From: a virus
Lineage: Duplodnaviria; Caudoviricetes
Strand: one strand, 5' to 3'
DNA length: 64,000 nt
IMG/VR virus record: IMGVR_UViG_3300049629_001293
Coordinates: 1-64,000 of that record
Part shown: positions 15,642-63,632 of the stretch, piece after piece
How the letters are laid out: each line of letters starts with the position of its first letter
How positions within the stretch are numbered: position 1 is the stretch's first letter
Notes under the pieces: generated by a model
What the model was told of the DNA's origin: nothing
Databases searched by the model: none
The model's input: only the letters and a program-made list of their open reading frames with translations
Position numbers and translations under genes: made by a program

Positions 15642-15691
15642 ACTCCCCTAGCCTTTCAAAAACAACACTACAAACGCAAGGAACTAAAACT

Positions 15692-46866: not shown

Positions 46867-46989
46867 ACATTTTAATCCTATAATTTCTTAACTATTCTAT
46901 CAAAAAATTAGTATTATTGGAAAATTCAAACAATTCACCAGAGAGGATGTGAAATTAGTGGGGCGTTTATTCTGATTGACCTATTAATT

Positions 46990-48549
46990 TCAGTTCCCTT
47001 GCCTAACTACAGAATAGATAAAATCAAACATTTCTGGATCGTTCTTAGCTAGGTAAATAGGGTTCCTGTGCATTAATTCTAATCCCATTGATAAAACCTC
47101 TGTATTATACATATTACTCCCGTACACTTTCCCCATGTAAGGATGTATCCATTTATCAACCTTGGTAACTTCGTAATCTTCGTAATTAAGTGGATGTACA
47201 TCTTTTAATTTTACTATCTCCTCTCCGGCAGTTCTTCTATTATAAAAATTAAGCACCTCTTTGTGTATTAAAGGGGAACGATCCTCTATCCAATGCCCAG
47301 CTTCATGTATTAATGTTGCTTTCTCCGTGGTTCCCATGTCAATAGTCCCCGTTGGCCAGCAACAGCTTCTTTGTCCTTGTTTTATTTCACGGATAGACAA
47401 TGTACTGGTTAACCCTGGAATTTCAATCATTCGAGAAAGTTCTTCTATCCCATCCTGATATTCTTTTTTTCTCTTTTTATCTAAAACTGTATTGTTAGTA
47501 TTGATTTTTGTGGGATTATCCACATAGATTAATTTTCTGGCTTCTTGAAGAATTGCCTTAATTCTTTCGTTCGTCTTGGCTCCAGTGTAGTATTCAATGT
47601 TTTCATTTGTTAAAAATTGAGCTATAACCTTTTTAGGTAAAAATCGGGGTACGGGAGGGGAATTGTTTAAGTCTTCCTGTAATTTTAATAACTGCGCTCT
47701 TTTCCCTTGTGCTTCGATCATCAATGCGTCTCGTCTTCCCTTCCGTTGTTCCAATAAAATATCTAATTCTGCATCTTTAGCCTCTTTCTCCTTTCTTTCT
47801 TTCTCCCATTTCGCTCTAATCTGATCTGCTTTTATTCTAAGTTGTTCTGATATTGTTCTGAACTTCTCATCTACCTCATTAGCTTTTTTGAGACGTTCTT
47901 GTTCCTCTAGCATTACCTGTTTCTGTTTTTCTGATTTCTTTACTTCATATTCTTTCCTTTTTCTTTGTACTTCCTCCCAGTCCTTTATTAACAAGGGTTC
48001 TGTTATTTTCTTGAGTTCATCAGCTTTTTTAAGAAATTCTTTTTCTTCTTCGGGTAAAATACCTGGTTTCGTTGATCGTCTTAAATATTTTGCTCGTAAT
48101 TCGTTTAATTTAAAAAGCCTTTCCTGAGAAAAATCGTCCTGAGCATTGGCTCTGCAACTTTTCTTGATATTGATACAAATACTTCCACAATTATAGGAAG
48201 TTGGCTTTACACACTGGGCTTTCTCCCTTTTCGCTCCCCCTGCATCAATTCGGTAAGAATAACCTGCTGAGAAGTCTTCCCAATTCTTTAAATCAACACC
48301 CCGACTATCAATTCTAGGGGTGAATGGTTTATAAACAACCGACTTCCTGTTTATCTCAAAGGAAAACACACGAGATCTGGTTAAGTCCTTAAACCGCCCT
48401 GTTATCTTTTCATTCTCCAGGGTTCCAGGATCGAAATCTAGCACAATGACCGGAGCATTATAGGCAAATGACATTGACAGAATTTGACCTATTGCCAATC
48501 TCATCTGAGCTTCGGAAGGTGCCATGTTAGGGGCAAAAGATTGAACCAT
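46990..48549 (-). CDS. array member: leader + Cys motif + coiled coil + HExxH peptidase-like domain
   Basis: FAYNAPV leader; CVKPTSYNCGSICINIKKSC; LIHEAGHWIE; EVLSMGLE. Confidence 0.8.
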   Translation of the reverse strand: MVQSFAPNMAPSEAQMRLAIGQILSMSFAYNAPVIVLDFDPGTLENEKITGRFKDLTRSRVFSFEINRKSVVYKPFTPRIDSRGVDLKNWEDFSAGYSYRIDAGGAKREKAQCVKPTSYNCGSICINIKKSCRANAQDDFSQERLFKLNELRAKYLRRSTKPGILPEEEKEFLKKADELKKITEPLLIKDWEEVQRKRKEYEVKKSEKQKQVMLEEQERLKKANEVDEKFRTISEQLRIKADQIRAKWEKERKEKEAKDAELDILLEQRKGRRDALMIEAQGKRAQLLKLQEDLNNSPPVPRFLPKKVIAQFLTNENIEYYTGAKTNERIKAILQEARKLIYVDNPTKINTNNTVLDKKRKKEYQDGIEELSRMIEIPGLTSTLSIREIKQGQRSCCWPTGTIDMGTTEKATLIHEAGHWIEDRSPLIHKEVLNFYNRRTAGEEIVKLKDVHPLNYEDYEVTKVDKWIHPYMGKVYGSNMYNTEVLSMGLELMHRNPIYLAKNDPEMFDFIYSVVRQGN

Positions 48550-48557
48550 GATTCTAC

Positions 48558-48857
48558 TTAATAAACAATTTCAGACTCATCAACCACTTTCCCGTTAATT
48601 ACCAAAGGAGGAGGAGCAATAGGTTGATCCATCACTGTCCCGTCAAAAGTCTTCGCCAGTTCTGTTGCAATCAACCAATCGGGGTCGGGAGTTGCAGGGG
48701 AATTAAGCCAGAAGAAAGGCGAGTCAGGGTCTATGGCTGCCAATTTCTCCATTGCTAATACATTGTTCAGGATCGAGGCATAATGGGGCGTTGAGGATGT
48801 CCAAACTCCATTCTCAATAACTGCCACTACACCGTTGATTTTGACGCGATAAGCCAT
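48558..48857 (-). CDS. small acidic protein within the array
   Basis: 99 aa; coupled between two peptidase-like genes; lacks the shared motifs. Confidence 0.65.
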   Translation of the reverse strand: MAYRVKINGVVAVIENGVWTSSTPHYASILNNVLAMEKLAAIDPDSPFFWLNSPATPDPDWLIATELAKTFDGTVMDQPIAPPPLVINGKVVDESEIVY

Positions 48858-48858
48858 G

Positions 48859-50025
48859 TTAACCTCTTCTAACTACCGAATAAATAAAATCAAACATATC
48901 GGGGTCTTGTTTAGCGAGTGCGACTGGATTCCTATACATTAATTCTAAACCCATTGAGAGAATTTCCGTTGACTCGTCAGGATAAACTTTTCCCATATAA
49001 GGACGCATCCATTTATCAACCTTTGTTATTTCAGTATCTCTATACGATTTGATTCCGGTTGCGTCTCGCATTTTGACCGCTTTTTCTCCCTTTGTCCTGC
49101 GATTGTAAAATTCTACAACTTCTTTCTTTATTTCTGGGACGGAGTATTCTATCCAGTGACTTAATTCGTGAATAACTGTACCAGGGTCATCATTCCCCAT
49201 TGACACGGTTTTATCTGCATTATTATAATAACTTCTCTTATCTCCCTCTGGCAAGCCTTTGACATTAACCTTACTCGTTAAACCAGGAATTGACACCATT
49301 AAAGACAGTGATTGAATCCCCTCATCCCATCGGGATTTATTCTTTTTATCTTTTACTTTAACATTAAGATTTGTAGGTAAGTTGACTTGAACTAATTTCC
49401 TGACTTCACTTGAAAACCTTTTGAAGTCTTCTGATGCAGCCTCTAATTCTCTTAATTTACCTTCACTTAAAATATCAGCCAATGGCGGATTCGTTTTTAA
49501 TAGTTTATCAATTTCTTTCTTTGTTCTTTTTATTAATTTAGCTAAGTATTTCTCTGGCTTTCCATCGTCAATAGCCTTTATAATAGCACTACCTTTGTGT
49601 TTAGAAGGATCAAATTTAGATATAAAATCCTCTGACATTTTATCTAATCGTCCCCTAACTTCTTTCGCTTCTTCTAATAACCTAACTTTTCTTTGTTCTG
49701 GGGTTTCTGGTTTATTTATTGGTTTCTCTTTAGCAAGCAAGGGAATGTCGGGGGTGAAATCATTGATTGACTTTAAGTTGTCGACACCAGGAGGAATAAT
49801 AGGATTGGATTTAATAGCCTTTTCTTTTGCAGACCTTCTACTAACGGCGGTAACGTAATCAATTCCTATCGCTTTTAGCTTCTCAAGCCTATCCTTTGAC
49901 CTAGAATCATTCGGAACTATCCTGCAATTTTTCTTAACATTAATGCAAGATAGACCACAATTATAGGAAGTAGTCTTTACACATTGAGCTTTCTTTTCCC
50001 TCTTGTCTTCTCTATATTTAATCAT
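48859..50025 (-). CDS. array member: Cys motif + HExxH peptidase-like domain
   Basis: CVKTTSYNCGLSCINVKKNC; VIHELSHWIE; EILSMGLE. Confidence 0.8.
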   Translation of the reverse strand: MIKYREDKREKKAQCVKTTSYNCGLSCINVKKNCRIVPNDSRSKDRLEKLKAIGIDYVTAVSRRSAKEKAIKSNPIIPPGVDNLKSINDFTPDIPLLAKEKPINKPETPEQRKVRLLEEAKEVRGRLDKMSEDFISKFDPSKHKGSAIIKAIDDGKPEKYLAKLIKRTKKEIDKLLKTNPPLADILSEGKLRELEAASEDFKRFSSEVRKLVQVNLPTNLNVKVKDKKNKSRWDEGIQSLSLMVSIPGLTSKVNVKGLPEGDKRSYYNNADKTVSMGNDDPGTVIHELSHWIEYSVPEIKKEVVEFYNRRTKGEKAVKMRDATGIKSYRDTEITKVDKWMRPYMGKVYPDESTEILSMGLELMYRNPVALAKQDPDMFDFIYSVVRRG

Positions 50026-51122
50026 TTTCTCCTCACAACACTATAAATAAAATCAAACATTTCAGGATCATTCTTGGCTAGATATACCGGATTCCTATAC
50101 ATTAATTCCATCCCCATTGATAATATTTCAGAAGCATTTTTATATTCTTTGCCCATATAAGGATTTAACCATTTATCAACTTTTGTAACCTCATCATCTC
50201 TATAGTTCTTGTTTCCTGTAACTTCGCTCATCTTAACGGTTTTTTCCCCTGCCGTTCGCTTTTCGTAAAAAGATTCAACTTCTTCTCTAATCCCTGGCAC
50301 TTTCTCCTCTAGCCAATGACTCATCTCGTGAACTACAACAGCAGGGTCAGGATTCCCCATATAAACATTATTTGTTTTCGGTTTGTAATAGCTTCTCCCT
50401 TTTCTTTCTGGCGGAGCATTAACTATATTAACTGGAGCATCCAGCCCTGGAATTGAGATCATTTTTTGGAATACCTCAACACCTTTTTGATGGGATCTAG
50501 GATTTCCGGTTTTGACGGATGAATTCAACTTAGTTGGACTATCCACTTCTACCAATTTTCTAGCCTTCTCTAAAAAAGCCTGAGCTTCTTTGTTCGAGGT
50601 ATTAAACACTCTCTCCGCCCTTGCTGATAGCCTCTCAGCCTCTTGTGGGTCTTCTTGCGACAAACCCTTGATTTTCTTACTGTAAAGAAGTTTATTCTTT
50701 TTAAGTTGCCGAACGGGGTTCTCCGATTCAAGTAACGAGGCAGTCCCTTTCTTCGTAACAGATGTTTCGCTAACGCCCTCGTATAATTTCAGCAGTTCCT
50801 CTCGCTTGCTTGCAGCCTCCGCTTTTAGTCGTGCTTTCCTGCGAGCTTGATTGATAATCTTCCTGTCCACTGCCAACTCGGACGCTTCTGTTTTTCTGGC
50901 TTTTTCTACCACGCCAACCAATTCATCGGCCGCGGCTTTTTGCCTTAAAGACCTTGCTGACTTCGATTTTGATTGAGCATAGAATTGAGAGATTTGTTTT
51001 AACCTCTGAAGACGCGATCGCCCAAAAGATTCAGAAGGGACTTGCCGGCAATTTTTAGAGACGTTAATACAGGCGTTGCCACAGTTATAGGATGTTGGCT
51101 TTTCGCATTTGGGCTTCTTCAT
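50022..51122 (-). CDS. array member: Cys motif + HExxH peptidase-like domain
   Basis: CEKPTSYNCGNACINVSKNC; VVHEMSHWLE; EILSMGME. Confidence 0.8.
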   Translation of the reverse strand: MKKPKCEKPTSYNCGNACINVSKNCRQVPSESFGRSRLQRLKQISQFYAQSKSKSARSLRQKAAADELVGVVEKARKTEASELAVDRKIINQARRKARLKAEAASKREELLKLYEGVSETSVTKKGTASLLESENPVRQLKKNKLLYSKKIKGLSQEDPQEAERLSARAERVFNTSNKEAQAFLEKARKLVEVDSPTKLNSSVKTGNPRSHQKGVEVFQKMISIPGLDAPVNIVNAPPERKGRSYYKPKTNNVYMGNPDPAVVVHEMSHWLEEKVPGIREEVESFYEKRTAGEKTVKMSEVTGNKNYRDDEVTKVDKWLNPYMGKEYKNASEILSMGMELMYRNPVYLAKNDPEMFDFIYSVVRRK

Positions 51123-51237
51123 TTCAGAACATCACCATTAAGTTTATTGGGTTACTTTTTTGTATTGATTTTTCTTCGAGATAAAGCATAATTAATAGTA
51201 GGAATTAACTATGTTTTATTTGGGATTGAGTCGTCGC

Positions 51238-52653
51238 TTAAATTTCTTCTACTTCGACATATATTGTGCCATCTTTTTTTGTGACATTCTTAACCTTATG
51301 TTTTGCACTTTTTGGTACAACAACTTCGGACACCCACTCATAACCCTCTGGGGTAAGGTTTTGAATAGATGCACCCGTTTTATTTATCGCCTTAAGCACA
51401 ACACGTTGTCCAGCATCACCGGCTCCTCTAAAACCAGCAAATTTTTCGGCAGTCTTGGGATCGGTAGTCCATGAAGCATGGGCACCTTGATTGTCTAATA
51501 CCCCATCTTTGTCCCCTTTTAGCCAATTCATAGCTTCATCTTCTGAATCAAAATTCATCCCCCTCTGTATCTCTCCCTTGTATGGGGTCGAATTTGCAAG
51601 ATATTTAGAAATTAAATTTGCTCCTACGTTTGGTCTATTTTCTTTTTGTGATCTTCTAATTGCTTCGGAATTATAAACCCACGATCTGACATATTTAACA
51701 GTCGCCTTAGCCTCGCCTTCTGTTATTTCAATTCCTTTCTTCCTGGCCATCTCATAGTATTCTTGTGGGTTTTTAGGTGTACTTTCATGAGTCCCATCAC
51801 CAATCAAATTTGTTGGCTCAGGCTTCTTGGTCTCTGGTTCAGGTTTTTTAGTTTCTTCCTTTGGTTTAGATGCTTCTTTCTTTGGTTTAGATGCTTCTTT
51901 CTCTGGAGATTGAGTGGAACTTGGCGCTGTCGTTTTTTGGGATTTTATGTAGTTAGCAACACCATCTTTTATTTTTGATAATTGAGTGCCACTAACCCCG
52001 GCTTTCGTTGCAGCTTCTTCTAGTTTAAGAACACTAACTCCTGCTTTCTTTGCCAAACCTTCTATCTGAGCAATGGAAAGAGTTTTTGCTTTTTCTTTCG
52101 TCTGTTTTTCTGCTGGTTTTTTCGTTTCAGCATTAGGATCTGTTTTAGCTGTTTTAGTTACTTCTGATGCCTTGGGTTTTTCTGTTACTTTGGTTGTTTT
52201 TGCATAATCCTTCCCTACTTCCTTTAATTTACTAAGCCTCTCCTGTGAATTACTATCTTCCGTGCTGGATTTGCAGTTATTCTTAATATTGATACAGGCT
52301 TTCCCACAATTATACGCTGTCGGTTTAACACACTGTGGCTTCTTATTACCTCCTATCCCCGCATCTACCCGATAGGAGTAGCCACTAGAGAATTCCTCCC
52401 AGTCATCTACGCTATCCATCCGTCCTGGGGTGTAAGGTTTAAAAGTGACTGATTGCCCTTTGATATTAAATGAAAAAATACGGGGACGGGTTGCATCCTT
52501 GAATTTGCCTTCAAACTCCCCTTGATCATTTACCGAAAAATCCAATATCACCACCGGAGCATTATAGGCAAATGGTTGAGACAGAGTTTGGGCGATCGCC
52601 AACTTCATCTGTGGCTCGGTTGGCGTGGCATCTTTTCTAGTCGTTGAACTCAT
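51238..52653 (-). CDS. array member: leader + Cys motif + ADP-ribosyltransferase-like domain
   Basis: FAYNAPV; Cys motif; YKGEIQRG / HASWTTD / VSEVVV (R-S-E pattern). Confidence 0.75.
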   Translation of the reverse strand: MSSTTRKDATPTEPQMKLAIAQTLSQPFAYNAPVVILDFSVNDQGEFEGKFKDATRPRIFSFNIKGQSVTFKPYTPGRMDSVDDWEEFSSGYSYRVDAGIGGNKKPQCVKPTAYNCGKACINIKNNCKSSTEDSNSQERLSKLKEVGKDYAKTTKVTEKPKASEVTKTAKTDPNAETKKPAEKQTKEKAKTLSIAQIEGLAKKAGVSVLKLEEAATKAGVSGTQLSKIKDGVANYIKSQKTTAPSSTQSPEKEASKPKKEASKPKEETKKPEPETKKPEPTNLIGDGTHESTPKNPQEYYEMARKKGIEITEGEAKATVKYVRSWVYNSEAIRRSQKENRPNVGANLISKYLANSTPYKGEIQRGMNFDSEDEAMNWLKGDKDGVLDNQGAHASWTTDPKTAEKFAGFRGAGDAGQRVVLKAINKTGASIQNLTPEGYEWVSEVVVPKSAKHKVKNVTKKDGTIYVEVEEI

Positions 52654-52664
52654 GGTTAAATCTC

Positions 52665-54614
52665 CTATACTTCCTCAGCTTCAACAATAATCCGTCCGTT
52701 TTCTTCCTTGACACTTTTAACTCGATGGCGAGTGTCTTTTAGCACCATAACTTCGTCTTCTTCTTTGATCCTGCTCAAATTCCTAATAGACACACCTGAT
52801 TTATTAATGGTTTTAATGACGACGGGATACCTTTTTTCCTCAATAAAGAAATCGTCCGAAAAATTCTTTGCTGTTTTAAGGCTAGATGACCAAGAGGCGT
52901 GAGCACCTTGATTATCTAGCACCCCATCCTTGTCGCCTTTAGTCCAGTTTAAAGCCTCCTCTTTGGTTGCAAAATGAATCCCTCGGTAAACTTCGCCTTC
53001 GTATGGGGTTGAGTTCCTGACATAATTAGAAATCCGATTGGCATCCTCGTTTTCTTCCCCTGCTTTTTGATCGACTCGGATGTCAGTGGCATCCCTTGTC
53101 CATTTATAGATGGCTGTAGTGGTGGCTGCTGCCTCCTTCTTAGAAATATTTACTCCTGCTTTTTCCAGTGCTTCACGATACTCATCGGGGGTTGAGGGCA
53201 TGGATTCGTGGTCGCCCTTCCCTACTAAATTAAGGTTTTTAGGTTTTTCTTCGGGTTGTTTAACCGCCTTTTCCTCGGATTCTTTTTGGGTTTTAGTTAT
53301 TTCTGGTGATGGTTCAGGCATTTTCTTTTCCTTGTTAGGAGAAACTTCTTCTGTCTCAACGATCAAAACACCATCTTCGTACACAACCTTTTTAACCCGA
53401 TGGCGAGTGTCTTTGATGACCACTACCTCATCTTCCGTATCAAAGGTGCTTAAATTTTTGATAGAGGCACCTGACTTATTAATTGTTTTGATAATGATAG
53501 GTTGTGATGTCTCATCGAACGCATTGTCAACAGCAAATTCTCTCGCTTTATCCCAATTAGAAGTCCAAGATGCGTGGGCATTTTGATTGTCCAATATTCC
53601 GTCTTTGTCTCCTTTTGCCCACTCCAGTGCTTCTTCTGTTGATTCAAGGGAGATACCTCGGTAGATTTCACCTTTGAATGGCGTTGAACTCTTGACGTAA
53701 TCAGTGATCCGGTCGGCAACGAGGCTGTATTTCCCTGCTTTTTGAGATTCTCTAATATAAGAGGCATCTTCTGTCCACTCTTTAACGGCTCCGGTAATCT
53801 TTATAGCATCGTCATAAGAGATGGGATTACCCGATGCTTTCATTGCTTCAAAGTACCCGTATGCGTCGCCAGGAACGGACTCATGATCCCCCTTCCCTAC
53901 TAAATTAAGAGGCTTGGGTTCGTTTTCAGGTTCTTTAAGGGTTTCTGTTTGATCTTCACTCTTTACAGCTATTTTAGCAGCTTTCTTCCCTTCTTCAAAG
54001 TCAGATTCTTTCCCTTTTTTGCTAGGGGGAATTTCCTTTATTGTTTCTGGGATTTTATCTATTTCTGGTGGTTTTTCTACCTCTTTCTTGGTTTTTGTAG
54101 TTGATTTAGGATTGGATTTCTTGGCTTCTTTAGCGTAATCAATACCAGCAGCTTTCAATTTCTCTAAACGATCCTTTGACTGAGCGTCATCGGGGTTTGA
54201 TTTACAATTATTATTAATATTTATACAGGCTTTCCCGCAATTATATGCGGTGGGTTTAACGCATTGGGGTTTCTTTTTGTCTCCTGCCTTGCCTTTTGCT
54301 TTAGCCGTTTTAGCCTTGGCATCAAAACGGAAGGAATAGCCTAATGAGAACTCCTCCCATTGTTCTACTGCATCGCCCGAATCCATCCGTCCTGGGGTAT
54401 AAGGTTTGAAGTTAACGGTATTTCCATCTAACTCAAAATCAAACACCCTCGGACGGGCAGAATCCTTAAATCTCCCAGATATTTTACCCGTGTCATCTAC
54501 CTTAAAGTCCAGCACGTCCACTGGGGCGTTATAGGCAAAAGGAAGAGCAAGAGTCTGGGCGATCGCTGCTTGCATTTGTACTTTTGTTGGGGCTGTTTTA
54601 GTCTCTATGCTCAT
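52665..54614 (-). CDS. array member: leader + Cys motif + two tandem ADP-ribosyltransferase-like domains
   Basis: IYRG/HASWTS/TEDEVVV and VYRG/HASWSS/EEDEVMV. Confidence 0.8.
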   Translation of the reverse strand: MSIETKTAPTKVQMQAAIAQTLALPFAYNAPVDVLDFKVDDTGKISGRFKDSARPRVFDFELDGNTVNFKPYTPGRMDSGDAVEQWEEFSLGYSFRFDAKAKTAKAKGKAGDKKKPQCVKPTAYNCGKACININNNCKSNPDDAQSKDRLEKLKAAGIDYAKEAKKSNPKSTTKTKKEVEKPPEIDKIPETIKEIPPSKKGKESDFEEGKKAAKIAVKSEDQTETLKEPENEPKPLNLVGKGDHESVPGDAYGYFEAMKASGNPISYDDAIKITGAVKEWTEDASYIRESQKAGKYSLVADRITDYVKSSTPFKGEIYRGISLESTEEALEWAKGDKDGILDNQNAHASWTSNWDKAREFAVDNAFDETSQPIIIKTINKSGASIKNLSTFDTEDEVVVIKDTRHRVKKVVYEDGVLIVETEEVSPNKEKKMPEPSPEITKTQKESEEKAVKQPEEKPKNLNLVGKGDHESMPSTPDEYREALEKAGVNISKKEAAATTTAIYKWTRDATDIRVDQKAGEENEDANRISNYVRNSTPYEGEVYRGIHFATKEEALNWTKGDKDGVLDNQGAHASWSSSLKTAKNFSDDFFIEEKRYPVVIKTINKSGVSIRNLSRIKEEDEVMVLKDTRHRVKSVKEENGRIIVEAEEV

Positions 54615-54715
54615 GTTTTTGCTCTTCCTTTTGCTTTAGAAGTATTTATACAAGAATTGCCGCAATCGCAAGAAGTGGGTTTAACACATTTAGGTTTTTC
54701 GCTTTTGACCCACAT
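54611..54715 (-). CDS. 34-aa Cys-motif-only mini ORF (below the ORF-track cutoff)
   Basis: MWVKSEKPKCVKPTSCDCGNSCINTSKAKGRAKT*; starts 1 nt after the upstream stop and overlaps the next start (ATGA). Confidence 0.6.
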   Translation of the reverse strand: MWVKSEKPKCVKPTSCDCGNSCINTSKAKGRAKT

Positions 54716-54716
54716 A

Positions 54717-56075
54717 CTATTTAGTTACTTGAGCAAAAGACCTCATTTTGCCCGCCGCGTTTTGGATTCCGTCGCCATATCTTTTATTGATATCAGAACC
54801 AGGAGGATATTCCCCTCTGCCTACGCCATTAAGAGTAAACAAATCATTCTCGTGTAAGTCAAGCATGGCTCTATTAAAATCACCCCGACCAACCTTATCC
54901 CCCATTGCGTCACGGATCTTGTATATAGGGACAAGACCTCCATGATTCCCTTCTTTGTCTATGTCTTTCAATAGTGTAGATATCTCTTTCTGTATTTCTT
55001 TTTGATCAGACATCTGCCCTGGTTTGCGCTTAAATTCTTGTTTTGCTTTTTCAATAGCTTTTGTGTCTTTTATAACAAAAGATTGACGATTCCTGTTGAA
55101 CATATCGGTAATTCCGTCCGAAGGATCAAATTGTCCGTCTGGATTCATATCCTCTTTTTTTAACGTTCCAGTTTCTAGTTCGATTCCCTCGTCATCTGTA
55201 CCTGCCTTTAGTGTCCATTTATCAAAGTCTTCTTTACTCACCCTGTCTTTTAATTCATGTCTCATTTGTGCTATGTTTACTCGATCTCCTTGTCCTAACT
55301 CAAACGCAACCCTAGCTGCTTCTTTGACAATCTCCTTTTTAAAGGTGTCATAATCCTTTATTGGTTCGTCACTATAAAAGGGATTTGCCTTGGATTTAGG
55401 ACTAGATTTAGCTTTGGGTTTAACTTCGGGCTTTGGCTCGATCTTGGCTTCTGGTTCTGCCGTTTTCTTTGTTGCCAATTTTTGACCAGTAGGCTTTTTA
55501 CTCTCTGCTTTAGGCTTGGTTTGGGGCTTTTCTACAGTCGTTTTTGCTGTTTTCGCGTAATCTTTCCCAATTCCTTCTAACTTTTTAAGCCTGTCTTTTA
55601 TTGTGGGATCATTGGTTTTGATTTTGCAGGTTTTCATGATGTTGATGCAAGCTGCACCACAATTGTAAGCTGTCGGCTTAACGCATTGAGGCTTTTTTTT
55701 GCCACCTACTCCCGCATCAACACGGAAGCCATACCCTGCTGAAAATGCCTCCCATTCTTGGACATCTTCCTCTGATTCTAAGCTGTCCATTTTGCCAGGT
55801 TTATAAGGCTTATAGGCTACGGACTCCCCATCTAGGGTAAAGGAAAACACCCGTGGACGTGCCGCATCTTTAAATACTCCGGTAATATTGCCATTCTCGG
55901 CAACATCAAATTTAAGCACAACAACTGGGGCGTTATAAACAAAATCCATTGACAAGGTTTGGGCAATAAGTAACCTCATTTGAGCTTCGGTTGGTGCAGT
56001 ACCTCCGCCACCATCCCCAACTAATACTTCATCTTCGTCAACACGGAACAAAGAACTTGGTTTTGTTTTTAACAT
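54717..56075 (-). CDS. array member: leader + Cys motif + duplicated unknown (possibly winged-helix) domain
   Basis: FVYNAPV; Cys motif; V.I..[MI]R....D[RK]V...DF repeated twice. Confidence 0.75.
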   Translation of the reverse strand: MLKTKPSSLFRVDEDEVLVGDGGGGTAPTEAQMRLLIAQTLSMDFVYNAPVVVLKFDVAENGNITGVFKDAARPRVFSFTLDGESVAYKPYKPGKMDSLESEEDVQEWEAFSAGYGFRVDAGVGGKKKPQCVKPTAYNCGAACINIMKTCKIKTNDPTIKDRLKKLEGIGKDYAKTAKTTVEKPQTKPKAESKKPTGQKLATKKTAEPEAKIEPKPEVKPKAKSSPKSKANPFYSDEPIKDYDTFKKEIVKEAARVAFELGQGDRVNIAQMRHELKDRVSKEDFDKWTLKAGTDDEGIELETGTLKKEDMNPDGQFDPSDGITDMFNRNRQSFVIKDTKAIEKAKQEFKRKPGQMSDQKEIQKEISTLLKDIDKEGNHGGLVPIYKIRDAMGDKVGRGDFNRAMLDLHENDLFTLNGVGRGEYPPGSDINKRYGDGIQNAAGKMRSFAQVTK

Positions 56076-56096
56076 GATTTTACCTTTTATAAATAG

Positions 56097-56166
56097 AAAC
56101 CTTGTGAGTTAATCACAAGTAAAAACCTTGTGAGTCAATCACAAGTAAAAACCTTGTGAGCTAATC
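56097..56166. repeat. 26-bp tandem repeat (~2.7 units) with internal palindrome
   Basis: AAACCTTGTGAGTYAATCACAAGTAA; CTTGTGA/TCACAAG stem. Confidence 0.85.
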
Positions 56167-56558: not shown

Positions 56559-56736
56559 TTCTTCTCTTTGGGAGTATAAGCAGCCTGTGGGTGGTCTGGC
56601 TTGTCTAACTTCTTATTGATTTCCTGTAACTCAACATAAATTGCTGCCATTGCTTGCAGTTCTGGCGAGGCGGGAGCCGCTATTCCAGCAGAAGTAACTC
56701 GACCATTATCAACGGTGAAATCAGGGAACTGTACTT

Positions 56737-57072
56737 TCATAAAACTAAAATAGGGGGAGTGAAGATAGTATTGCGGAGGTGGATATATTGCCTCCCGTAA
56801 GTTGTCAAAGACCAATCGTTCTCGGAGCCAGAAGGGGTAGAACTTCCTGGCCCGGATGCGATTCCCGTGACACTAGAGGCAATATCCGCCTGTTGAAACC
56901 AATCAATGCTGATTCGATGGGCAGCAATCAACATAATTCCATCCGTTCTCTTGGGATCAGCCCAACCAGCACAGTAATTATTCTCGGCAAAGTTTAAACT
57001 GTATTGAATCACAGAAGATTCGACTACAGCGAACTGAGGATAAACCGCTAAAAAATCGGAAGGGAGAACCAT
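56737..57072 (-). CDS. DUF4054 head-tail adaptor
   Basis: F...YPQF, L.AAH, W.LT.YGRQY. Confidence 0.75.
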   Translation of the reverse strand: MVLPSDFLAVYPQFAVVESSVIQYSLNFAENNYCAGWADPKRTDGIMLIAAHRISIDWFQQADIASSVTGIASGPGSSTPSGSENDWSLTTYGRQYIHLRNTIFTPPILVL

Positions 57073-57075
57073 TTA

Positions 57076-57555
57076 TTACCCACGGATGTTCATAGTATTA
57101 ACCGATTTGATATTCTTGACTTGCTCCGCTATTGCCTTAGAAATAGCGGGACGATCTTCTCTTTTCTCGGATCGTTCTAGCCAATCAATATCACTAGAAT
57201 TGCGAATTAGATCTAGGGCATCTTTTTCAATATAATCAAGGGTTGTTTCAGTAGGAAACTTCCCTTCCTCTAGGGTGGGAGAGATTACTCTGAATGCTCC
57301 GCAATTAACAAGTTGCAATCCGAGGGGATGCCGAACAATATAGTCATAGTCCTCGTCGGGAAGCTCCAAATTAGTCCCAGGCAGAATCCAACTCCCCCGT
57401 GTTTCCACCGCATCCAACGAGGTTTTTTTGGTTCCCCCACGAGTAATAGGACGGGAGAAACGGATCGGCGAAGTGATAGCCTCCACTGATATTCCATAGG
57501 GAATGCGTGGATTATGAGGATTTAGCTTTGGGTCAAAGATGATAGTTTTAGACAT
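57076..57555 (-). CDS. hypothetical virion-module protein
   Basis: Directly after the major capsid gene; C-terminal E.R..I..AI helix. Confidence 0.6.
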   Translation of the reverse strand: MSKTIIFDPKLNPHNPRIPYGISVEAITSPIRFSRPITRGGTKKTSLDAVETRGSWILPGTNLELPDEDYDYIVRHPLGLQLVNCGAFRVISPTLEEGKFPTETTLDYIEKDALDLIRNSSDIDWLERSEKREDRPAISKAIAEQVKNIKSVNTMNIRG

Positions 57556-57557
57556 TT

Positions 57558-58511
57558 TTATTCGGGTAATACTACAATGTGCATGGAGAATGGGCGTTTG
57601 AGGTCAATTCCCCCAAACTTAAACTTGGCACCACGCCAGAAAGAATCAACACCAATGGGACGAGTATCAGTCCACTTTAATGGTTGATAAATCTTAGCAG
57701 AGACTTTTTTGGGATCTCGACGGAAAGCCTGAATAAAGCGGGTAGGAGCCAAACCAATCGACTCTAAATATTCGGGAGCCATCTCGGACACCACACCGAC
57801 TTCTTTGATGTTGGAGTTGACTTTTAAGAAGTGTTCTAACACCGTGCGATCTAAGGCAGATGTACCAATTTGAATGATATCCGAGGAGAGGTGTTCGTAA
57901 GTTTCCGAATCCATCAGCAAAGTGTCAGGCTTCTCTCGGTTATTGGTCAACCGAGTCGGGGCATTCACACAATCATTCAACACACTCAGCTTTTGTTGAG
58001 ATGTTGCAGACCCGTTTAAAGGGAAGGGAGCATAAGACCGCAGGGCTTGGGGGTGATTCAAAAAACCTGGCATCCCTGTTTCTAAATCTCCGTTTGCCAC
58101 CAACTGATTGATTTTTTGTTGTGCGGCTTCTTGAATTGTCCAGATTTTGTCCTCCTCAATGCTCTCGCCCATTCGACTGACAGCCGCGATATCATCCTCG
58201 GAAACGCTATAACCTTGTCCCCATTTATGGATCGGCATCTTCATCTCGCCATAGACCAGTTCCACTTCGGGAAGGTCTGTGGTGTAGTTTCGGATTAATT
58301 TGAACTGCCCGACGTGACGGAGCCACCGATATCCCCAGGTTTTTGCCCAGGGCTTGTTTTGGATGTTGAGAGGGCAAATGACTCCAGCAGCGAAAGGATA
58401 GTCCGCAAGATCGAACTCCTTATCTACTTGAGCTTCTAAGTCCATCAGGGTGCCAAAGAACGTCCCGATTTCATCAGCATCCAACCTTGTAGTCCCGGAA
58501 AAGTTCATCAT
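57558..58511 (-). CDS. major capsid protein (DUF2184 family)
   Basis: RLDA N-terminus, G.FK.I.NY..DLP, GD...G..G.LNHP, PDTLL, GG....P; follows the DUF2213 and decoration genes. Confidence 0.85.
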   Translation of the reverse strand: MMNFSGTTRLDADEIGTFFGTLMDLEAQVDKEFDLADYPFAAGVICPLNIQNKPWAKTWGYRWLRHVGQFKLIRNYTTDLPEVELVYGEMKMPIHKWGQGYSVSEDDIAAVSRMGESIEEDKIWTIQEAAQQKINQLVANGDLETGMPGFLNHPQALRSYAPFPLNGSATSQQKLSVLNDCVNAPTRLTNNREKPDTLLMDSETYEHLSSDIIQIGTSALDRTVLEHFLKVNSNIKEVGVVSEMAPEYLESIGLAPTRFIQAFRRDPKKVSAKIYQPLKWTDTRPIGVDSFWRGAKFKFGGIDLKRPFSMHIVVLPE

Positions 58512-58530
58512 AGTTTAAGTTCTTTCTATA

Positions 58531-59361
58531 TTAAGGAACATTGAAGCCGATTAAAACGCACACCGCGCCAGTGCTAGTGACCACAGGGGAACATTTGAAC
58601 TCAGCCTTCGCGGAGATATTAATTGTACCACTTGTCACTTTTGTTGCTTTCCCCTCGTGTCCCGCAGCAACAGAGACGTAGACGGCATCATTGATTGTGA
58701 TATCCGTCTCAACACATTCAACCCAGATCCCTGACGATTCCCCTGTCCGGTCAACCACGTCCATCACATCCTGATAGGGGTAAGTTGTCCCACTATAGTT
58801 TGCACCTTGATAAATCAAAGGTTGCATTTCGATGTCTTTGACGATTCGAGTAATCCCTAAGATTACGTCAGTGGTAGCAGTAGGAAGTCCTGCAACTTTG
58901 GGGTCGGTTTCGGTGTTTGCTCTGGCAACAAACCGACCGAATGGTACGGGGAGAGGAATAATCATCGCCGTGGTTACAGTTGCCGTTAAACTAGCACCAG
59001 TAACTACCAGGATGTTCTCGATACCATATTCCAGTGCCGTGAATAGCACGTTATTCCCACTAACACTTGCAATCCCCCGTCGCCCAAAAGCAGGGTTTAC
59101 TCGGATTGCATTCAATAAACCAGCTTGCAGTTCCGCTTGAGTGGCACTAGCATCGGTTGTAAAACGTGCCGTGCCTAGTCCGTTGTTTAACCTGACGGTA
59201 TATACAGTGCTAGAAGCAGGGGAGGCAGGAATCGCCAGAGTCCAGACCTCTTTAACAGCATTCTTTATAGAAACAAGGGCTTTGACTCTCGGAAAATTAA
59301 TAGATCCCTCGCCCATGCCAGGAGTCGCCCGATCAAATTGAAGATTGTAGTTGTACCGCAT
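58531..59361 (-). CDS. capsid decoration/cement protein
   Basis: PFGRFV, ILGI, G.IWV, D.VYV; located between scaffold and capsid. Confidence 0.7.
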   Translation of the reverse strand: MRYNYNLQFDRATPGMGEGSINFPRVKALVSIKNAVKEVWTLAIPASPASSTVYTVRLNNGLGTARFTTDASATQAELQAGLLNAIRVNPAFGRRGIASVSGNNVLFTALEYGIENILVVTGASLTATVTTAMIIPLPVPFGRFVARANTETDPKVAGLPTATTDVILGITRIVKDIEMQPLIYQGANYSGTTYPYQDVMDVVDRTGESSGIWVECVETDITINDAVYVSVAAGHEGKATKVTSGTINISAKAEFKCSPVVTSTGAVCVLIGFNVP

Positions 59362-60896
59362 TATCTAGTAACCCCCATGCGTGTTTTTCCTATCGTTAAA
59401 GGCTGCTTATAGGCGTGCACCCGTCGTCTTTCCCCTTCGGTGAGTTCATCTCCGTAGGTAGATTGAGCAGGTCTTTTGAGCATCGAATCAAGGCGATGGG
59501 AGAACTCCTCTGAGTCTCCATCGTCTCCATCGTCTCTATCTTCTTCCTCCTCGTCATCCCCTTCTTCTTTATCACCTGGATCGGTGGGGGAAGAATCGTA
59601 ATTCTCCTGAACGTAGGCAAAAACCCCGTCTACATAAGAATCGGATCGGAACGTCAAGTCCATATTGGGTTCGATTTCAGCTAACAAAGTGCGTTTGATG
59701 TCGCTAGTAGAGAAGCTACTATCAAACCGAGCGTCAGAGAACCCTGGCAACAAACTGTCGGCTTCCTTCCATATCGCCAAAAGATCCCCGACCGAATCAC
59801 CCCGACAAGCACTCTCATCTTCGTCGTTGCTATCAACACGAGGCTTGGACTTTTTTTTCTTTTTGGAAGTCGTAGTTTCTTCTTCCTCTGCAACATCCCA
59901 TTCTTCCATCATTTCTTCTTCTTCATTGTCCTCCTCTTCCATCATTTCTTCATCTTCGGGAACGGGAGGCATCATTTTCTTTTTGCCTCCATCAACGCGG
60001 ACGTACTGCCCCATGTCATTCCGGTAATAACCTAATTCACCAAGGACATTATCGGCATTGTCTACGATGATCTCTAGGTTATCTAACCGGAACTGGTAAT
60101 TTTCCCGTGCGGCTTCTAGCTTCCGGTTCTCCCGACTCGTAGTATCAAACCGTGTAACAAGCGAATCGTGGCGTTCCTTTAATTCTTTCAATTCACGGAA
60201 TCGAGTACCGCTAATGGAAGCGAAAGATTCAGGGATTCCTGAATACTCAACTCCATCGCATCTAACTATTGCCATACGCTGTTCATTATCTCCATTATCA
60301 TTGGTTTTGTTAGGGTTACTAGGGTTTTCGATGACTTGCCCTGCGACAGCTTGTCCAATCCCCGCAGCACTATCTAATCGGAGGCGAACATCTCCCCCTG
60401 CCCTTCCTCGGCTCGTCAAAGCCAAATGGTTGGCACGGACATTAATCTGTTCCCTGTCATAGTGTTGCCCATTCCACACCCCTTCCCCTTGCTTGATGTC
60501 GCAGGTATATCCAGCAGATAGTTGTTCCTTTTCCCTTGCATCAATTAGGGCGATCGCCTTAGCATCAAAAAACGACACCAAGCCTTTGATCACCCCTTCA
60601 GTCTTGTCATAATAAGCAGAAGAATCAGTCATCCCTACCGTGTAATCCTTGTAGCTTTCGCTATTAAGAAGTCCAACATAGGGATGTTCTATCACCAGGG
60701 GGAGGAGTTTGAAACTCTCTACTGTGGCCAGTTCTGCATTGGTTTCCGGTCTCCTGAGTTCGTGGACTATGGAGCCATCAGGCTGACGATACTCCAACAC
60801 CCCGTCACAACAAAAAGACCCCTCACAATGGAGACGACCATCCTCAGTTCTTATTACCCTAAATTTAGTTGGAGCATCGAGCCTGATTTCAACCAT
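59361..60896 (-). CDS. DUF2213 prohead protease/scaffold
   Basis: T.DG.L, GVLEY, P...EHP, QLSAGY.CD, NHLAL..RGRAG...RLD; acidic scaffold C-terminus. Confidence 0.88.
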   Translation of the reverse strand: MVEIRLDAPTKFRVIRTEDGRLHCEGSFCCDGVLEYRQPDGSIVHELRRPETNAELATVESFKLLPLVIEHPYVGLLNSESYKDYTVGMTDSSAYYDKTEGVIKGLVSFFDAKAIALIDAREKEQLSAGYTCDIKQGEGVWNGQHYDREQINVRANHLALTSRGRAGGDVRLRLDSAAGIGQAVAGQVIENPSNPNKTNDNGDNEQRMAIVRCDGVEYSGIPESFASISGTRFRELKELKERHDSLVTRFDTTSRENRKLEAARENYQFRLDNLEIIVDNADNVLGELGYYRNDMGQYVRVDGGKKKMMPPVPEDEEMMEEEDNEEEEMMEEWDVAEEEETTTSKKKKKSKPRVDSNDEDESACRGDSVGDLLAIWKEADSLLPGFSDARFDSSFSTSDIKRTLLAEIEPNMDLTFRSDSYVDGVFAYVQENYDSSPTDPGDKEEGDDEEEEDRDDGDDGDSEEFSHRLDSMLKRPAQSTYGDELTEGERRRVHAYKQPLTIGKTRMGVTR

Positions 60897-61028
60897 TTCT
60901 CAATACAAAAAACAAATAATTCTTTTTAAAGAATAACGCACCCTATCAGTCATTTAAAGAGGGTGCAAAAAAATAATTTCTATACAAGAAAATAGACTAA
61001 AATTAAATCAATGATTTAGATATAAATA

Positions 61029-61403
61029 ATGACTATTACAAAAAGAGAGTATCCTTCTAAGAAAACGTTAGGATCTGGTGCATTGGCTCCCTATCGCGCT
61101 CTCGGTCGGTCAATTCGACGAGATCTTATAAATGCAAATCTTGGAATGATGGAATTTAGCGAGAAAAGTGGGTGGGATTGGCAGACAATTCGACGGATTT
61201 TAATGGGGGAGCGGCGGACGGATTTTATAGAACTGTTGATTATCGCTTCGTTAATTTCTGAGGATCAATCGGAAACGGAAAGACTGATCCTCACCTGGAC
61301 GAAGGAAACTTTGAAAATCATCGAGGAAGGAATCCCCCAAGAAATTAACCCAGGTCTTGTTGATAATCTTGTCGAGATTAACGAAGAGATCCCTTTAGAA
61401 TAG
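61029..61403 (+). CDS. XRE-like HTH transcriptional regulator
   Basis: LG..IR......L....FSEKSG....TI.RI..GERR.DF.EL..IA. Confidence 0.75.
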   Translation: MTITKREYPSKKTLGSGALAPYRALGRSIRRDLINANLGMMEFSEKSGWDWQTIRRILMGERRTDFIELLIIASLISEDQSETERLILTWTKETLKIIEEGIPQEINPGLVDNLVEINEEIPLE

Positions 61404-61797
61404 CAATAATCTCCTGACGATTCCGTTGGCTTACTCCTAAAAATTGACGTTTAGGCATTTTCTTAGTGCCTTTTTGTAAATAGGAGCCATAGGGCAATGG
61501 AGTCCCTACCTCAACCCTTCCTTTTTCAATCCGATATCGAATAGAAGATCGCAACAATCCTTGGCGTTGTAGTATTTGCATAATAAAACCCCGACTAGCC
61601 TTGTATTTAAGGGTTGATGGGGCTAGGTGTTCCCATTTCTCCCCATAAGGACTCTGTTCCTTCTGGAAGTTCTCATCGGTTGATGCCACCATGAACTGCC
61701 CAACTTTATGCAGTTCAGGTGTGAGGTTCTGAAACTTTCTGATTAATTTATTGAGGTAATTTTGGACTTGGTTAGCAACGAATTTTAGGGATAGCAT
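61378..61797 (-). CDS. phage virion morphogenesis protein (Mu gpG-like)
   Basis: F..E.SP.G..W..L.PST, IL...G.L.SSI, VGT...Y...Q.G..KMP.R.FLG.S. Confidence 0.85.
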   Translation of the reverse strand: MLSLKFVANQVQNYLNKLIRKFQNLTPELHKVGQFMVASTDENFQKEQSPYGEKWEHLAPSTLKYKASRGFIMQILQRQGLLRSSIRYRIEKGRVEVGTPLPYGSYLQKGTKKMPKRQFLGVSQRNRQEIIAILKGSLR

Positions 61798-61994
61798 AGG
61801 GTTAAAAGTAAAATATATCCTAATTTTAATATAAAAAAGGAAGGCTTTAACACCTCCTCCATCTTACCGTTTCAGTTACCCTCTGCACCCTCAAAACCCT
61901 CTTTTAATATTGTTTTGACTTTTGACTGTTTTCTGTCTTTTGGGTAGCTAACCGATTCTTGTCTTCAAGTAGACGATTATACGCTACAACCTCA

Positions 61995-63632
61995 TCAAGA
62001 ACTCGGTTTTTTTCCAAATCGGTAAGTTTTTTGTAGTTCATCTAGTACCTGTTCATATACTTCTTTTATTATTTTAGCAGAACCTTTTTGATTATTGGCT
62101 AATTTTTCTGCTGCTTGATTCAAAAGTGTCGAAACTTTTCCTGTTAGCATTTTTTCTTGATCAAATGCCCCTAGTGCTTTTTCTGCAATATCAGCAATTT
62201 CACTTGACTCCTCTACGTTGATTTTATTTCCTGCTTTGGCTAAATCTGAGGCAGCTTTTGACTTCCCAACAGTTGAGAATAAACGCTTTTCCCTTTGCAA
62301 CTGTCTTTTTATAGCAGATTGAATCTGGGCTTTTTCAATAGCCAAAGAGCGAGATTCAGGGGAAAATCCCAACAAATCAAATAAGCCACCCTGAGATTCG
62401 GTTATTGTTGGGGCATTTGTTACCATATCGGACAATTCCTCTATAGTGTCATTAGTGATCTTTTTACCTTTTTTCTCTTCTTTCTCCACTAACTCTAGTA
62501 AGTCTTGTTGTTGGCGGTGATCTTTTATTTTAGAACCAATTACAACAGCCCTTTGTTCGGGGATTTGACCCTGTACCACTCTATTAAATAGAGAGTCACT
62601 TAGACTAGCTAAAGCCAGCCCGTCCTCAGCTATTTTCTCCCTCATGGGTACGCCTTTTTTCTCTAGGTCTTGTTTTGTTAAACCAGAATCTCTAAAGAAT
62701 TTAGCTGCATCCTGAGCATTGCCTCGACCTTCTGCGATATTTGTTAATGCACCAATAGCACGGGCTTCTTCTGGAGATTTAGCATCAATTAATTTTACGG
62801 TGACGGATTCAGCATTTAGTTTTTTAGCTAATGCAAGTCGGTTGTGACCGTTCACGACATAAACACCGCCATCTTTGGGATCTTGCCAAACTTGAAGGAT
62901 GCCACCCAGGTTAGAATCCCACGTTTTAACTCCCGACAAACTCCCGACTTCTCCCGACTTGGTTTGCTCTCCAATGATCTTGTATTGAAATCTTTTAGGG
63001 TCAACCTGGATTTTACTGGGGTCGGCTTCTGCTATTCCTGAAGACAAGACTTGATCCGCCCCCAACCGAGAAGCAGCATCATCCCACTTTCCTGCTGGTT
63101 TCGGTGTCAGCTTGTTATTCTCCTGCCTCTTAGCCGGATCATCCTGAGCCTCCTTAAACCCTCCCGCCATAGCTTTAACTTTGTCCAGCTTTTCCTGGGA
63201 AGGTTTATCAGGGGGGTCTGACTTGCAGTTCTTATTTAAGCTAATACAAGCCTTCCCGCAGTTATAGGAAGTATTGCCACACTTAGGTTTTTCCTTCCTA
63301 ACGGTCTTAGCTACATCGAATCGGTAGCAATACCCCTTTGAGTAGTCTTCCCACGCCACGGGGTCAACGTCGAGGCTGTCGGTTCGTTTCCAGGTAAACG
63401 GTTTGAAGGCAATGGAATCCCCAATCTCAAACTCAAAAACACGGGATCTAATGGCGTCCTTAAACCGTCCTTTGATGATGTTTTTGTTGCCTACTTCAAA
63501 ATCCAGAACGATAACCGGAGAGTTGTAGGCAAATGGCATCGACAAGACTTGAGAAATACCAAGTTTCATCTGCACTTCTGTTGGGGCAGCATCAAAGCTA
63601 GGGGGATTTTGACGGTTTAAGGTAGTGACCAT
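61995..63632 (-). CDS. array-family member: leader + Cys motif + ParB-like domain
   Basis: FAYNSPV; CGNTSYNCGKACISLNKNC; IQVDPKRFQYK, VW.D..G..YVVNGHNRL.LA. Confidence 0.78.
   Translation of the reverse strand: MVTTLNRQNPPSFDAAPTEVQMKLGISQVLSMPFAYNSPVIVLDFEVGNKNIIKGRFKDAIRSRVFEFEIGDSIAFKPFTWKRTDSLDVDPVAWEDYSKGYCYRFDVAKTVRKEKPKCGNTSYNCGKACISLNKNCKSDPPDKPSQEKLDKVKAMAGGFKEAQDDPAKRQENNKLTPKPAGKWDDAASRLGADQVLSSGIAEADPSKIQVDPKRFQYKIIGEQTKSGEVGSLSGVKTWDSNLGGILQVWQDPKDGGVYVVNGHNRLALAKKLNAESVTVKLIDAKSPEEARAIGALTNIAEGRGNAQDAAKFFRDSGLTKQDLEKKGVPMREKIAEDGLALASLSDSLFNRVVQGQIPEQRAVVIGSKIKDHRQQQDLLELVEKEEKKGKKITNDTIEELSDMVTNAPTITESQGGLFDLLGFSPESRSLAIEKAQIQSAIKRQLQREKRLFSTVGKSKAASDLAKAGNKINVEESSEIADIAEKALGAFDQEKMLTGKVSTLLNQAAEKLANNQKGSAKIIKEVYEQVLDELQKTYRFGKKPSS

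Follow-up and report, generated by a model that had tools for sequence, protein, structure and literature searches.

The DNA analysed here is a stretch of 64,000 nucleotides (the window; bases 1-64000 of the 98,464-base virus record IMGVR_UViG_3300049629_001293, which is rated complete) from a close relative of the Planktothrix phage PaV-LD. Its head and cargo module, on the minus strand at 41-64 kb, encodes a 511-residue DUF2213 protein that is 87% identical to PaV-LD ORF071R, a major capsid protein, and seven paralogous candidate cargo proteins, five of which carry a long N-terminal leader. We conclude that the DUF2213 protein is likely a serine protease of the gp21/assemblin fold that cuts after Asp and processes itself, its scaffold, the capsid protein and the cargo leaders. 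The Asp cleavage code is strongly supported, and the maturation of cargo by leader removal, as read from the sequences, is plausible. These conclusions draw on motif statistics, conservation, fold and agreement with the published capsid N-termini of two other DUF2213 groups, all observed or computed here; from them we infer catalysis, cleavage in this phage, and the packaging of the cargo with removal of its leaders.

The R-x-D motif in the DUF2213 protein

The protein belongs to the Pfam family DUF2213 (PF09979), with 101.6 bits over aa 16-173 against a gathering cut-off of 22. The initial annotation had listed 12 R-x-D sites in it; all 12 are there, and YRNDM (aa 292) and DRDDG (aa 454) come in addition. 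These 14 triplets compare with 3.9 expected, and none of 5000 composition-preserving shuffles reached that number. The longer pattern R-x-D-[SGATN] occurs 13 times against 1.16 expected (again 0 of 5000 shuffles). Twelve of the 14 lie in the scaffold part (aa 174-511), where none of the control patterns was enriched: K.D, R.E and R..D are absent, and RD and D.R occur once each, which excludes charge composition and a helical salt-bridge pattern as the cause. The enrichment comparison that the initial annotation had proposed was run on the whole 98,464-base record, with 87 non-overlapping open reading frames (ORFs) of at least 100 aa as the reference set. R.D[SGA] occurs 22 times in the nine named ORFs against 3.0 expected (5.2 per 1000 aa); in the other 87 ORFs it occurs 10 times against 10.9 expected (0.46 per 1000 aa), that is, at background.

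Cuts at all 13 consensus sites (listed in Table 1; an arrow marks the proposed cut throughout) would yield a 168-residue protease domain and tail fragments of 7-53 residues. Among 18 members of the cyanophage clade, R5, D7, D175, R270 and D272 are invariant; the other tail sites shift position from one member to the next, with a total that stays steady near 10-15. The tail also contains, at 59800-60000 of the window (minus strand; aa 303-355), a low-complexity stretch that is acidic and rich in Met (EDEEMMEEEDNEEEEMMEEW) and precedes a Lys run. The length of this stretch differs between close relatives, in which the protein has 505-546 aa.

The motif in the DUF2213 family

For the family as a whole we took the best 150 of 7992 DUF2213 relatives (E <=0.001) found among 1.84 billion cluster representatives. 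In these 150 sequences R-x-D occurs 1140 times against 388.5 expected and, when all 400 gapped dipeptides were ranked, R.D came out as the most enriched in 69 representatives, K.D in 16 and H.D in 2. A profile centred on their 5914 Asp residues shows R (2.9x), H (2.5x) and K (1.7x) at P3, C/F/Y/L (1.5-2.8x) at P2, and S (2.3x), G (1.8x) and A (1.6x) at P1'; the Glu-centred profile of the same representatives shows nothing comparable. The family logo is thus [R/H/K]-[F/Y/L/C]-D↓[S/G/A]. As read from these sequences, Asp at P1 with a small P1' is the constant part, whereas P3 is basic here and K, H, N or A in other clades, and P2 is preferably hydrophobic. The R-x-D consensus as first proposed thus holds for its Asp and for the small residue that follows, and gives way at P3, where Arg is not constant.

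An acidic, Arg-containing, low-complexity tail might yield R-x-D by composition, without selection, and the scaffold tail is indeed rich in Asp and Glu and has low-complexity stretches. This explanation is already refuted by the shuffles (0 of 5000), by the unenriched R.E, R..D, RD and D.R patterns, by the recurrence of the motif in the 150 representatives and by its absence around Glu, and we give it practically no weight.

The family is very large: besides the relatives counted above it has 636 phage records, and T1-like, PB1-like and Acinetobacter phages are among its carriers. In many metagenomic members a NUDIX domain (PF00293) is fused to the DUF2213 part and replaces the scaffold tail or stands beside it; no R-x-D enrichment is seen in these proteins.

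Protease fold and probable active site

The AlphaFold2 model of DUF2213 residues 1-180, built with 91 sequences, has a mean predicted local distance difference test score (pLDDT) of 92.4; it is flexible over 10 residues at either end, where the two flanking sites are located. The best structural match is T4 gp21 (5jbl_A; VIA Z 11.1, root-mean-square deviation 2.9, 131 residues aligned), which assigns the domain to the assemblin/gp21 fold. Herpesvirus proteases match at Z 9.5 to about 6, those of varicella-zoster virus (9.5) and pseudorabies virus lying at 9.5-9.0, and Foldseek hits had a probability of 0.97-1.00 and E of 2e-3 to 6e-2. In the 91 sequences H71, S127 and H157 are invariant, in the order His-Ser-His, as are N156 and R165; D147 is conserved in at least 90%, and so are R5, D7 and D175. 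Judging from this conservation, the catalytic triad probably consists of His71, Ser127 and either His157 or Asp147. R165 is a candidate for the S1 pocket residue that would recognise Asp. NCBIfam gave no meaningful match for the protease, the capsid protein or the cargo. A preprint on T1-like phages already names their homologue as a scaffolding prohead protease and ascribes a catalytic Ser to it (10.1101/2023.05.21.541620).

Agreement with capsid N-termini

The major capsid protein begins as the initial annotation had read it, with an R-L-D-A site (MMNFSGTTRLD↓ADE). From genes adjoining DUF2213 genes in IMG/VR contigs we aligned 22 capsid proteins, 12-78% identical to that of the window, and D11 is one of only three columns that are invariant in this divergent set. 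Nearly every clade has [R/K/H/N/A]-x-D-[A/S] just before the first conserved capsid helix. The P3 residue tends to match that of the same phage's scaffold, being R in the PaV-LD group, K in T1-like and A in PB1-like phages; the matching fractions add up to 7.3, compared with a mean of 5.08 in shuffled pairings, of which 1 in 5000 attains 7.3. This is suggestive only, since the phages are related and several clades are mismatched. Strict P3 covariation between capsid and scaffold was considered and found to be only partial: several clades have N, H or A in the capsid and R in the scaffold, so we do not claim a one-to-one code.

The mature N-terminus is on record for the capsid protein of TLS, a T1-like phage, for which Edman degradation gave ASDMGIW (PMC11447400). 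This peptide maps to residue 33 of RefSeq gp36, directly after K30-N31-D32, and the DUF2213 protein of TLS (gp33) has 15 [RKH]-x-D sites, with 3.3 K-x-D and 1.0 R-x-D expected. The TLS paper surmises that 45 residues are removed (PMC11447400), whereas the peptide starts at residue 33 in RefSeq gp36 (15072-16061); the discrepancy may reflect a re-annotated start. In Rogue1, gp19 has 16 [RK]-x-D sites, and the capsid protein has MTIKLD↓A and DKAD↓A.

A second group is provided by the PB1-like phages E217 and Pa193, whose capsid models begin at residue 66, the first 65 residues being invisible (PMC10329688, PMC11456595). The E217 authors suggest that these residues are cleaved or disordered (PMC10329688, PMC11456595). 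The homologous capsid protein of phage 14-1, of equal length, reads A62-M63-D64-S65-N66 at this point, and its DUF2213 protein contains AADSA, AMDSA and AQDSA. Pa193, too, has a DUF2213 homologue, gp24, which was deposited under the name 'scaffolding protein' (PDB 9b40_G, E 5.6e-10); in the accessible text the Pa193 authors leave gp24 cleavage undecided and do not call gp24 a protease. The TLS and PB1-like data locate the cut behind an Asp and agree with a small P1'.

The same data bear on the idea that R-x-D is a repeated contact motif, for instance between scaffold and capsid interior or for docking, and is not cut. Contacts between scaffold and shell do persist in the family, as Pa193 keeps a gp24 fragment bound under its five-fold vertices. 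A motif used for docking alone, however, would have to be reconciled with a TLS N-terminus exactly after K-N-D, with PB1-like capsid models that start just after A-M-D-S, with a domain that has a protease fold with invariant His and Ser, and with the presence of the motif at both ends of that domain, in flexible segments; we consider it very improbable. That R-x-D is a prohead-protease signal, cut after Asp, is what the initial annotation had proposed, and the enrichment in one protein and in 150 relatives, the capsid Asp, the TLS N-terminus, the PB1-like models and the gp21 fold all support it, as far as comparison can.

The cryo-EM paper on phage XM1 reports 30 missing N-terminal capsid residues and, in its accessible portion, names no DUF2213 protease. 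The record PP580404, named XM1, was tried as a test case and set aside: it has a Clp-type protease and a gpE-like capsid, and it is not the phage of the cryo-EM paper.

Leaders of the candidate cargo array

The seven paralogues (46990-56075 and 61995-63632, minus strand) share a Cys4 motif and the helix that follows it, and differ in their C-terminal parts. These are two tandem ADP-ribosyltransferase (ART)-like repeats in the 649-aa protein, one ART-like part in the 471-aa protein, a ParB-like part in the 545-aa protein and an HExxH metalloprotease-like part in the 366-, 388- and 519-aa paralogues; that of the 452-aa protein is unknown. The whole looks like a polymorphic effector array.

In all five leader-bearing proteins we recovered the two sites previously reported at matching positions, and they occupy aligned columns: the mid-leader site reads RTDS, KMDS, RMDS, RMDS and RIDS, and the site before the Cys motif YRFDV, FRVDA, FRFDA, YRVDA and YRIDA. 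The leaderless members (MKKPKC and MIKYREDKREKKAQC) begin, again as reported, at or just after the second site. As the five leaders are paralogous, the ten sites count as two conserved columns and not as ten independent events. The columns hold in 71 distinct database leaders, with D80 in 71/71, S81 in 69/71 and R78 in 43/71 at the first site, and R95 in 71/71, D97 in 71/71 and A98 in 67/71 at the second; about half of these leaders also have an R-x-D near residue 6-8. In the leader model a helix and four strands span aa 9-75 (pLDDT 81-88), followed by aa 76-108 with pLDDT below 50, where both sites and the invariant W-E-E-F-S-x-G-Y-x-Y-R-x-D are found. This anatomy is as would be expected of a targeting propeptide removed by a head protease.

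In all five window proteins the leader stands at the N-terminus, as it does in all seven longer homologues among the matches listed. It is found only in PaV-LD-type sequences, joined to ART, GNAT (PF13673), ParB (PF02195) and other domains, and PaV-LD's own leader proteins retain both sites. Packaging is hinted at only by two GenBank labels in PaV-LD, 'virion structural protein' for ORF081R and 'minor virion protein' for ORF085R. A fold search with the leader core gave a best Z of 6.2 (VirB8-like and cystatin-like, helix on sheet), below the level that would indicate more than a common arrangement, and no family was assigned; an ESM Atlas search for the leader returned no usable match. Complex prediction with leader aa 1-100, the capsid protein and the scaffold tail scored 0.00 against a mark of 0.32 and speaks neither way.

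The motif might instead be a code for scaffold and capsid only, the leader sites being conserved for folding or binding and the leader staying on the cargo, packaged or not. Little or nothing varies in the WEEFSxGYxYRxD segment as a whole, which is what a binding motif would show; the sites amount to two columns in paralogous proteins; and since leaderless paralogues exist, the leader is dispensable for some family members. Against this, both leader sites fit the full family logo, with a hydrophobic P2 and S or A at P1', both lie in a linker predicted to be disordered, and the leaderless paralogues start where the second site would be cut or just after it. Moreover, the background rate given above corresponds to about 0.05 sites per 100-residue leader, against the 2 that are seen. 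We regard a leader that is retained as unlikely.

One leader-bearing cargo protein matches the Pfam family ART (NAD:arginine ADP-ribosyltransferase) at E 6.4e-06, and the other four of the five match no Pfam family. With an ART-like protein in the array, the Arg of R-x-D-S could conceivably be a target for the phage's own arginine ADP-ribosyltransferase-like cargo. The motif is, however, enriched as K-x-D in T1-like DUF2213 proteins, and the residue that is constant across clades is Asp, not Arg, which makes this exceedingly improbable.

We also noted that the conserved C-terminus of the scaffold (59364-59400, AYKxPLTxxK) loosely resembles the segment before the first leader site (FKPYTPGR, aa 70-80, e.g. 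52411-52445), both following the pattern aromatic-K-(x)-P-x-T-x-x-basic. This likeness could be a shared shell-binding motif or a coincidence.

A model for head and cargo maturation

We propose that the DUF2213 protein would act as a serine prohead protease fused to a C-terminal scaffold, with the cleavage motif [R, less often K/H]-[hydrophobic]-Asp↓[Ser/Gly/Ala]. Within the procapsid, it would release itself at R5-L-D7↓A and R173-L-D175↓S and cut its own scaffold tail at about 11 further sites, giving peptides of 7-53 residues able to exit the shell. The capsid protein would lose its first 11 residues by a cut at R-L-D11↓A. The five cargo leaders would be cut mid-leader at [R/K]-x-D↓S and at the terminal R-x-D↓A just before the Cys4 motif. 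The cargo, which includes ADP-ribosyltransferase-like, HExxH-metalloprotease-like and ParB-nuclease-like proteins, would thereby come free of a folded targeting domain some 75 residues long. Leader removal and cargo maturation in the head, as suggested in the initial annotation, fit all the sequence evidence while keeping the status of a proposal; the further claim that R-x-D independently supports packaging is reasonable, though it is not proof.

Several points weigh against this model. Cleavage in the window phage and in PaV-LD is predicted from sequence, and the members of the catalytic triad are assigned by their invariance and their order along the chain and not by superposition. Arg at P3 is not universal, the capsid sites of some clades being N-L-D, H-L-D, A-L-D or K-I-D, and five of 25 phage pairs show little or no P3 match between capsid and scaffold. 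The 65 residues missing from the E217 and Pa193 capsid models could, according to their authors, be disordered and not cleaved. Some R-x-D in the window are followed by an unfavoured P1' residue (RNDM, RFDV, RVDE, RLDK), so cutting at every occurrence is not required. The leader is well conserved throughout, and its invariant R and D columns alone therefore do not prove cleavage. Finally, a folded leader fragment of about 80 residues may be too big to exit, in which case part of it may stay inside the capsid.

Beyond this phage, we tentatively put forward that the DUF2213 enzymes may be a large class of Asp-specific serine proteases that has so far gone unread, whose P3 preference (R/K/H/A/N) drifts with their substrates, and that PaV-LD-type phages may use the code for a modular capsid-loading system in which a cleavable, folded targeting domain of about 100 residues and a Cys4 knuckle bring exchangeable enzymes (ADP-ribosyltransferase, GNAT, ParB-type nuclease, HExxH protease) into the head, from which they would be injected into Planktothrix. 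If such loading takes place, sequence alone would suffice to predict virion cargo, and foreign proteins could be loaded by means of the leader. The basic-hydrophobic-Asp↓small rule would let mature capsid N-termini, scaffold fragments and packaged cargo be predicted from sequence, would account for the start of PB1-like capsid models at residue 66 and for the nature of Pa193 gp24, and would make it likely that the enzymes of the cyanophage array are injected as effectors against a bloom-forming cyanobacterium. For enzymology, too, an assemblin-fold serine protease specific for Asp would be of interest.

Comparison with known systems

That a prohead protease processes scaffold, capsid and internal proteins at a single motif is textbook knowledge for T4 and phiKZ-type phages, and the T4 targeting sequence measures 10-19 residues. 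The likeness to T4 gp21 lies in a protease of the same fold and in one short motif with an acidic P1 that recurs in scaffold, capsid propeptide and the N-terminal targeting leaders of packaged proteins. P1 is Glu in T4, whereas here it is Asp with a basic P3, and protease and scaffold are separate genes there and fused here. As in T4, the putative cargo has an N-terminal leader that ends in the predicted prohead protease consensus (R-x-D↓A, invariant in 71 sequences). That leader is not short and unstructured, however, but about 100 residues long; it has two or three sites, its core (aa 9-75) is predicted to be folded, and the Cys4 knuckle follows it. T4 gp21 cuts after Glu, and among its substrates is Alt, a packaged ADP-ribosyltransferase that it trims; SPN3US ejection proteins have several sites per propeptide (PMC5694885). 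The proteases of phiKZ (gp175) and SPN3US (gp245), of MEROPS family S80, are comparable in that many head and ejection proteins are cut at one motif, with multi-site propeptides and self-cleavage; they differ in the motif itself (A/S/G-x-Glu), in having no scaffold fusion and in belonging to another Pfam family.

Comparable, too, are the T1-like Drexlerviridae (TLS gp33, Rogue1 gp19, Bas13), in which a protein of the same Pfam family has an N-terminal protease and a C-terminal scaffold (10.1101/2023.05.21.541620). Their scaffolds carry 15-16 [RK]-x-D sites and the mature TLS capsid protein follows K-N-D, but P3 is mostly Lys and no leader-bearing cargo array was seen in the stretches examined. 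In the PB1-like phages (Pbunavirus; Pa193, E217), gp24 is a DUF2213 homologue and the capsid models start after A-M-D64-S65; they differ in having Ala, not a basic residue, at P3 and a propeptide of 64 residues against 11 here.

In herpesvirus assemblin (pUL26 and relatives) the protease is fused upstream of the scaffold, releases itself by cleavage and cuts Ala↓Ser. The fold (Z 9.5-7) and the invariant His...Ser...His order are shared with the DUF2213 protein; the Ala↓Ser cut and the eukaryotic hosts of these viruses set it apart. Jamet and colleagues are said to have described, in 2017, MuF-fused polymorphic toxins of temperate phages, which are similar in that a common head-associated module at the N-terminus precedes enzyme or toxin domains of various kinds at the C-terminus. 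The shared module here differs in ending in candidate protease sites, and none of the seven paralogues has a Pfam match to the Phage_Mu_F domain.

No stated cleavage rule for the DUF2213 family was found in the literature, where papers naming DUF2213 were judged by title and abstract and none proved to be about cleavage. The accessible portions of the TLS, Pa193, E217 and cyclic oligonucleotide-based antiphage signalling system (CBASS) papers give no cleavage rule. A search for Asp-directed or motif-directed prohead cleavage brought up only work on T4, phiKZ, SPN3US and P1 and the TLS paper, besides unrelated proteases.

Organization of the head and cargo module

Read down the minus strand, the module starts with the 545-aa protein (leader, Cys motif and ParB-like part) and continues with the DUF2213 protein, a 276-aa protein resembling the XM1 gp53 decoration protein, and the 317-aa major capsid protein (PF09950). 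Four small head-tail genes, six further paralogues of the cargo family and a 1681-aa tape measure protein follow. The scaffold-fused protease gene thus lies upstream of the capsid gene, with the decoration-like protein between them, in the position of a prohead protease. The features are given in Table 1.

Table 1. Positions in the window of the DUF2213 protein, the capsid protein, the cargo leaders and their R-x-D sites
Feature	Position	Strand	Remarks
DUF2213 protease-scaffold fusion, 511 aa	59361..60896	-	Pfam PF09979 E 6.1e-29, aa 16-173; PHROG 530 'head maturation protease' E 3.4e-71
Predicted protease domain, aa 8-175	60372..60875	-	flanked by R5-L-D7↓A and R173-L-D175↓S
Predicted scaffold tail, aa 176-511	59364..60371	-	11 further R-x-D-[SGTN] sites
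RLDA, aa 5-8	60873..60884	-	
RLDS, aa 173-176	60369..60380	-	protease/scaffold junction
RCDG, aa 212-215	60252..60263	-	
RHDS, aa 242-245	60162..60173	-	
RFDT, aa 249-252	60141..60152	-	
RLDN, aa 270-273	60078..60089	-	R270, D272 invariant in 18 clade members
RVDG, aa 300-303	59988..59999	-	
RVDS, aa 353-356	59829..59840	-	
RGDS, aa 365-368	59793..59804	-	
RFDS, aa 390-393	59718..59729	-	
RSDS, aa 417-420	59637..59648	-	
RDDG, aa 454-457	59526..59537	-	aligned with R-x-D-S in relatives
RLDS, aa 468-471	59484..59495	-	
Major capsid protein, 317 aa	57558..58511	-	PF09950 E 8.9e-27; PHROG 264
Capsid N-terminal site R9-L-D11↓A12	58476..58487	-	predicted mature N-terminus ADEIGTF
Leader of 545-aa ParB-like cargo, aa 1-106	63315..63632	-	RTDS 63375-63386, RFDV 63312-63323
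Leader of 452-aa cargo, aa 1-120	55716..56075	-	KMDS 55782-55793, RVDA 55713-55724; N-terminal FRVDE aa 11
Leader of 649-aa cargo (two ART-like repeats), aa 1-98	54321..54614	-	RMDS 54378-54389, RFDA 54318-54329
Leader of 471-aa cargo, aa 1-97	52363..52653	-	RKDA 52627-52638, RMDS 52411-52422, RVDA 52360-52371
Leader of 519-aa HExxH cargo, aa 1-102	48244..48549	-	RIDS 48304-48315, RIDA 48241-48252; further RRDA 47725-47736
Cys4 motif C-x7-C-x3-C-x6-C of 471-aa cargo	52273..52332	-	four Cys invariant in 7 paralogues and 71 leaders
Same Cys4 motif elsewhere	63225-63281, 55626-55685, 54204-54263, 48154-48213, 51048-51107, 49924-49983	-	
Leaderless paralogue, 366 aa	50022..51122	-	starts MKKPKC at Cys motif; HExxH C-terminal domain
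Leaderless paralogue, 388 aa	48859..50025	-	starts MIKYREDKREKKAQC; site 2 remnant with unfavoured P1' Lys

Within this minus-strand module a 124-aa ORF lies on the opposite strand (61029-61403, plus strand), and PaV-LD ORF070L is placed likewise. PaV-LD has been called tail-less (PMC10343443); despite that description, its relative in the window (41147-56075) has the 1681-aa tape measure gene directly downstream of the cargo array. Close to each end of the 662-residue PaV-LD portal protein ORF057R (3917-5905) there is a site resembling the consensus (YRED↓S, aa 22-25; YRQD↓A, aa 630-633), and judging from these two sites the portal may be trimmed too. The portal gene of the window phage is located at 66091-68085 of the virus record, beyond the window.

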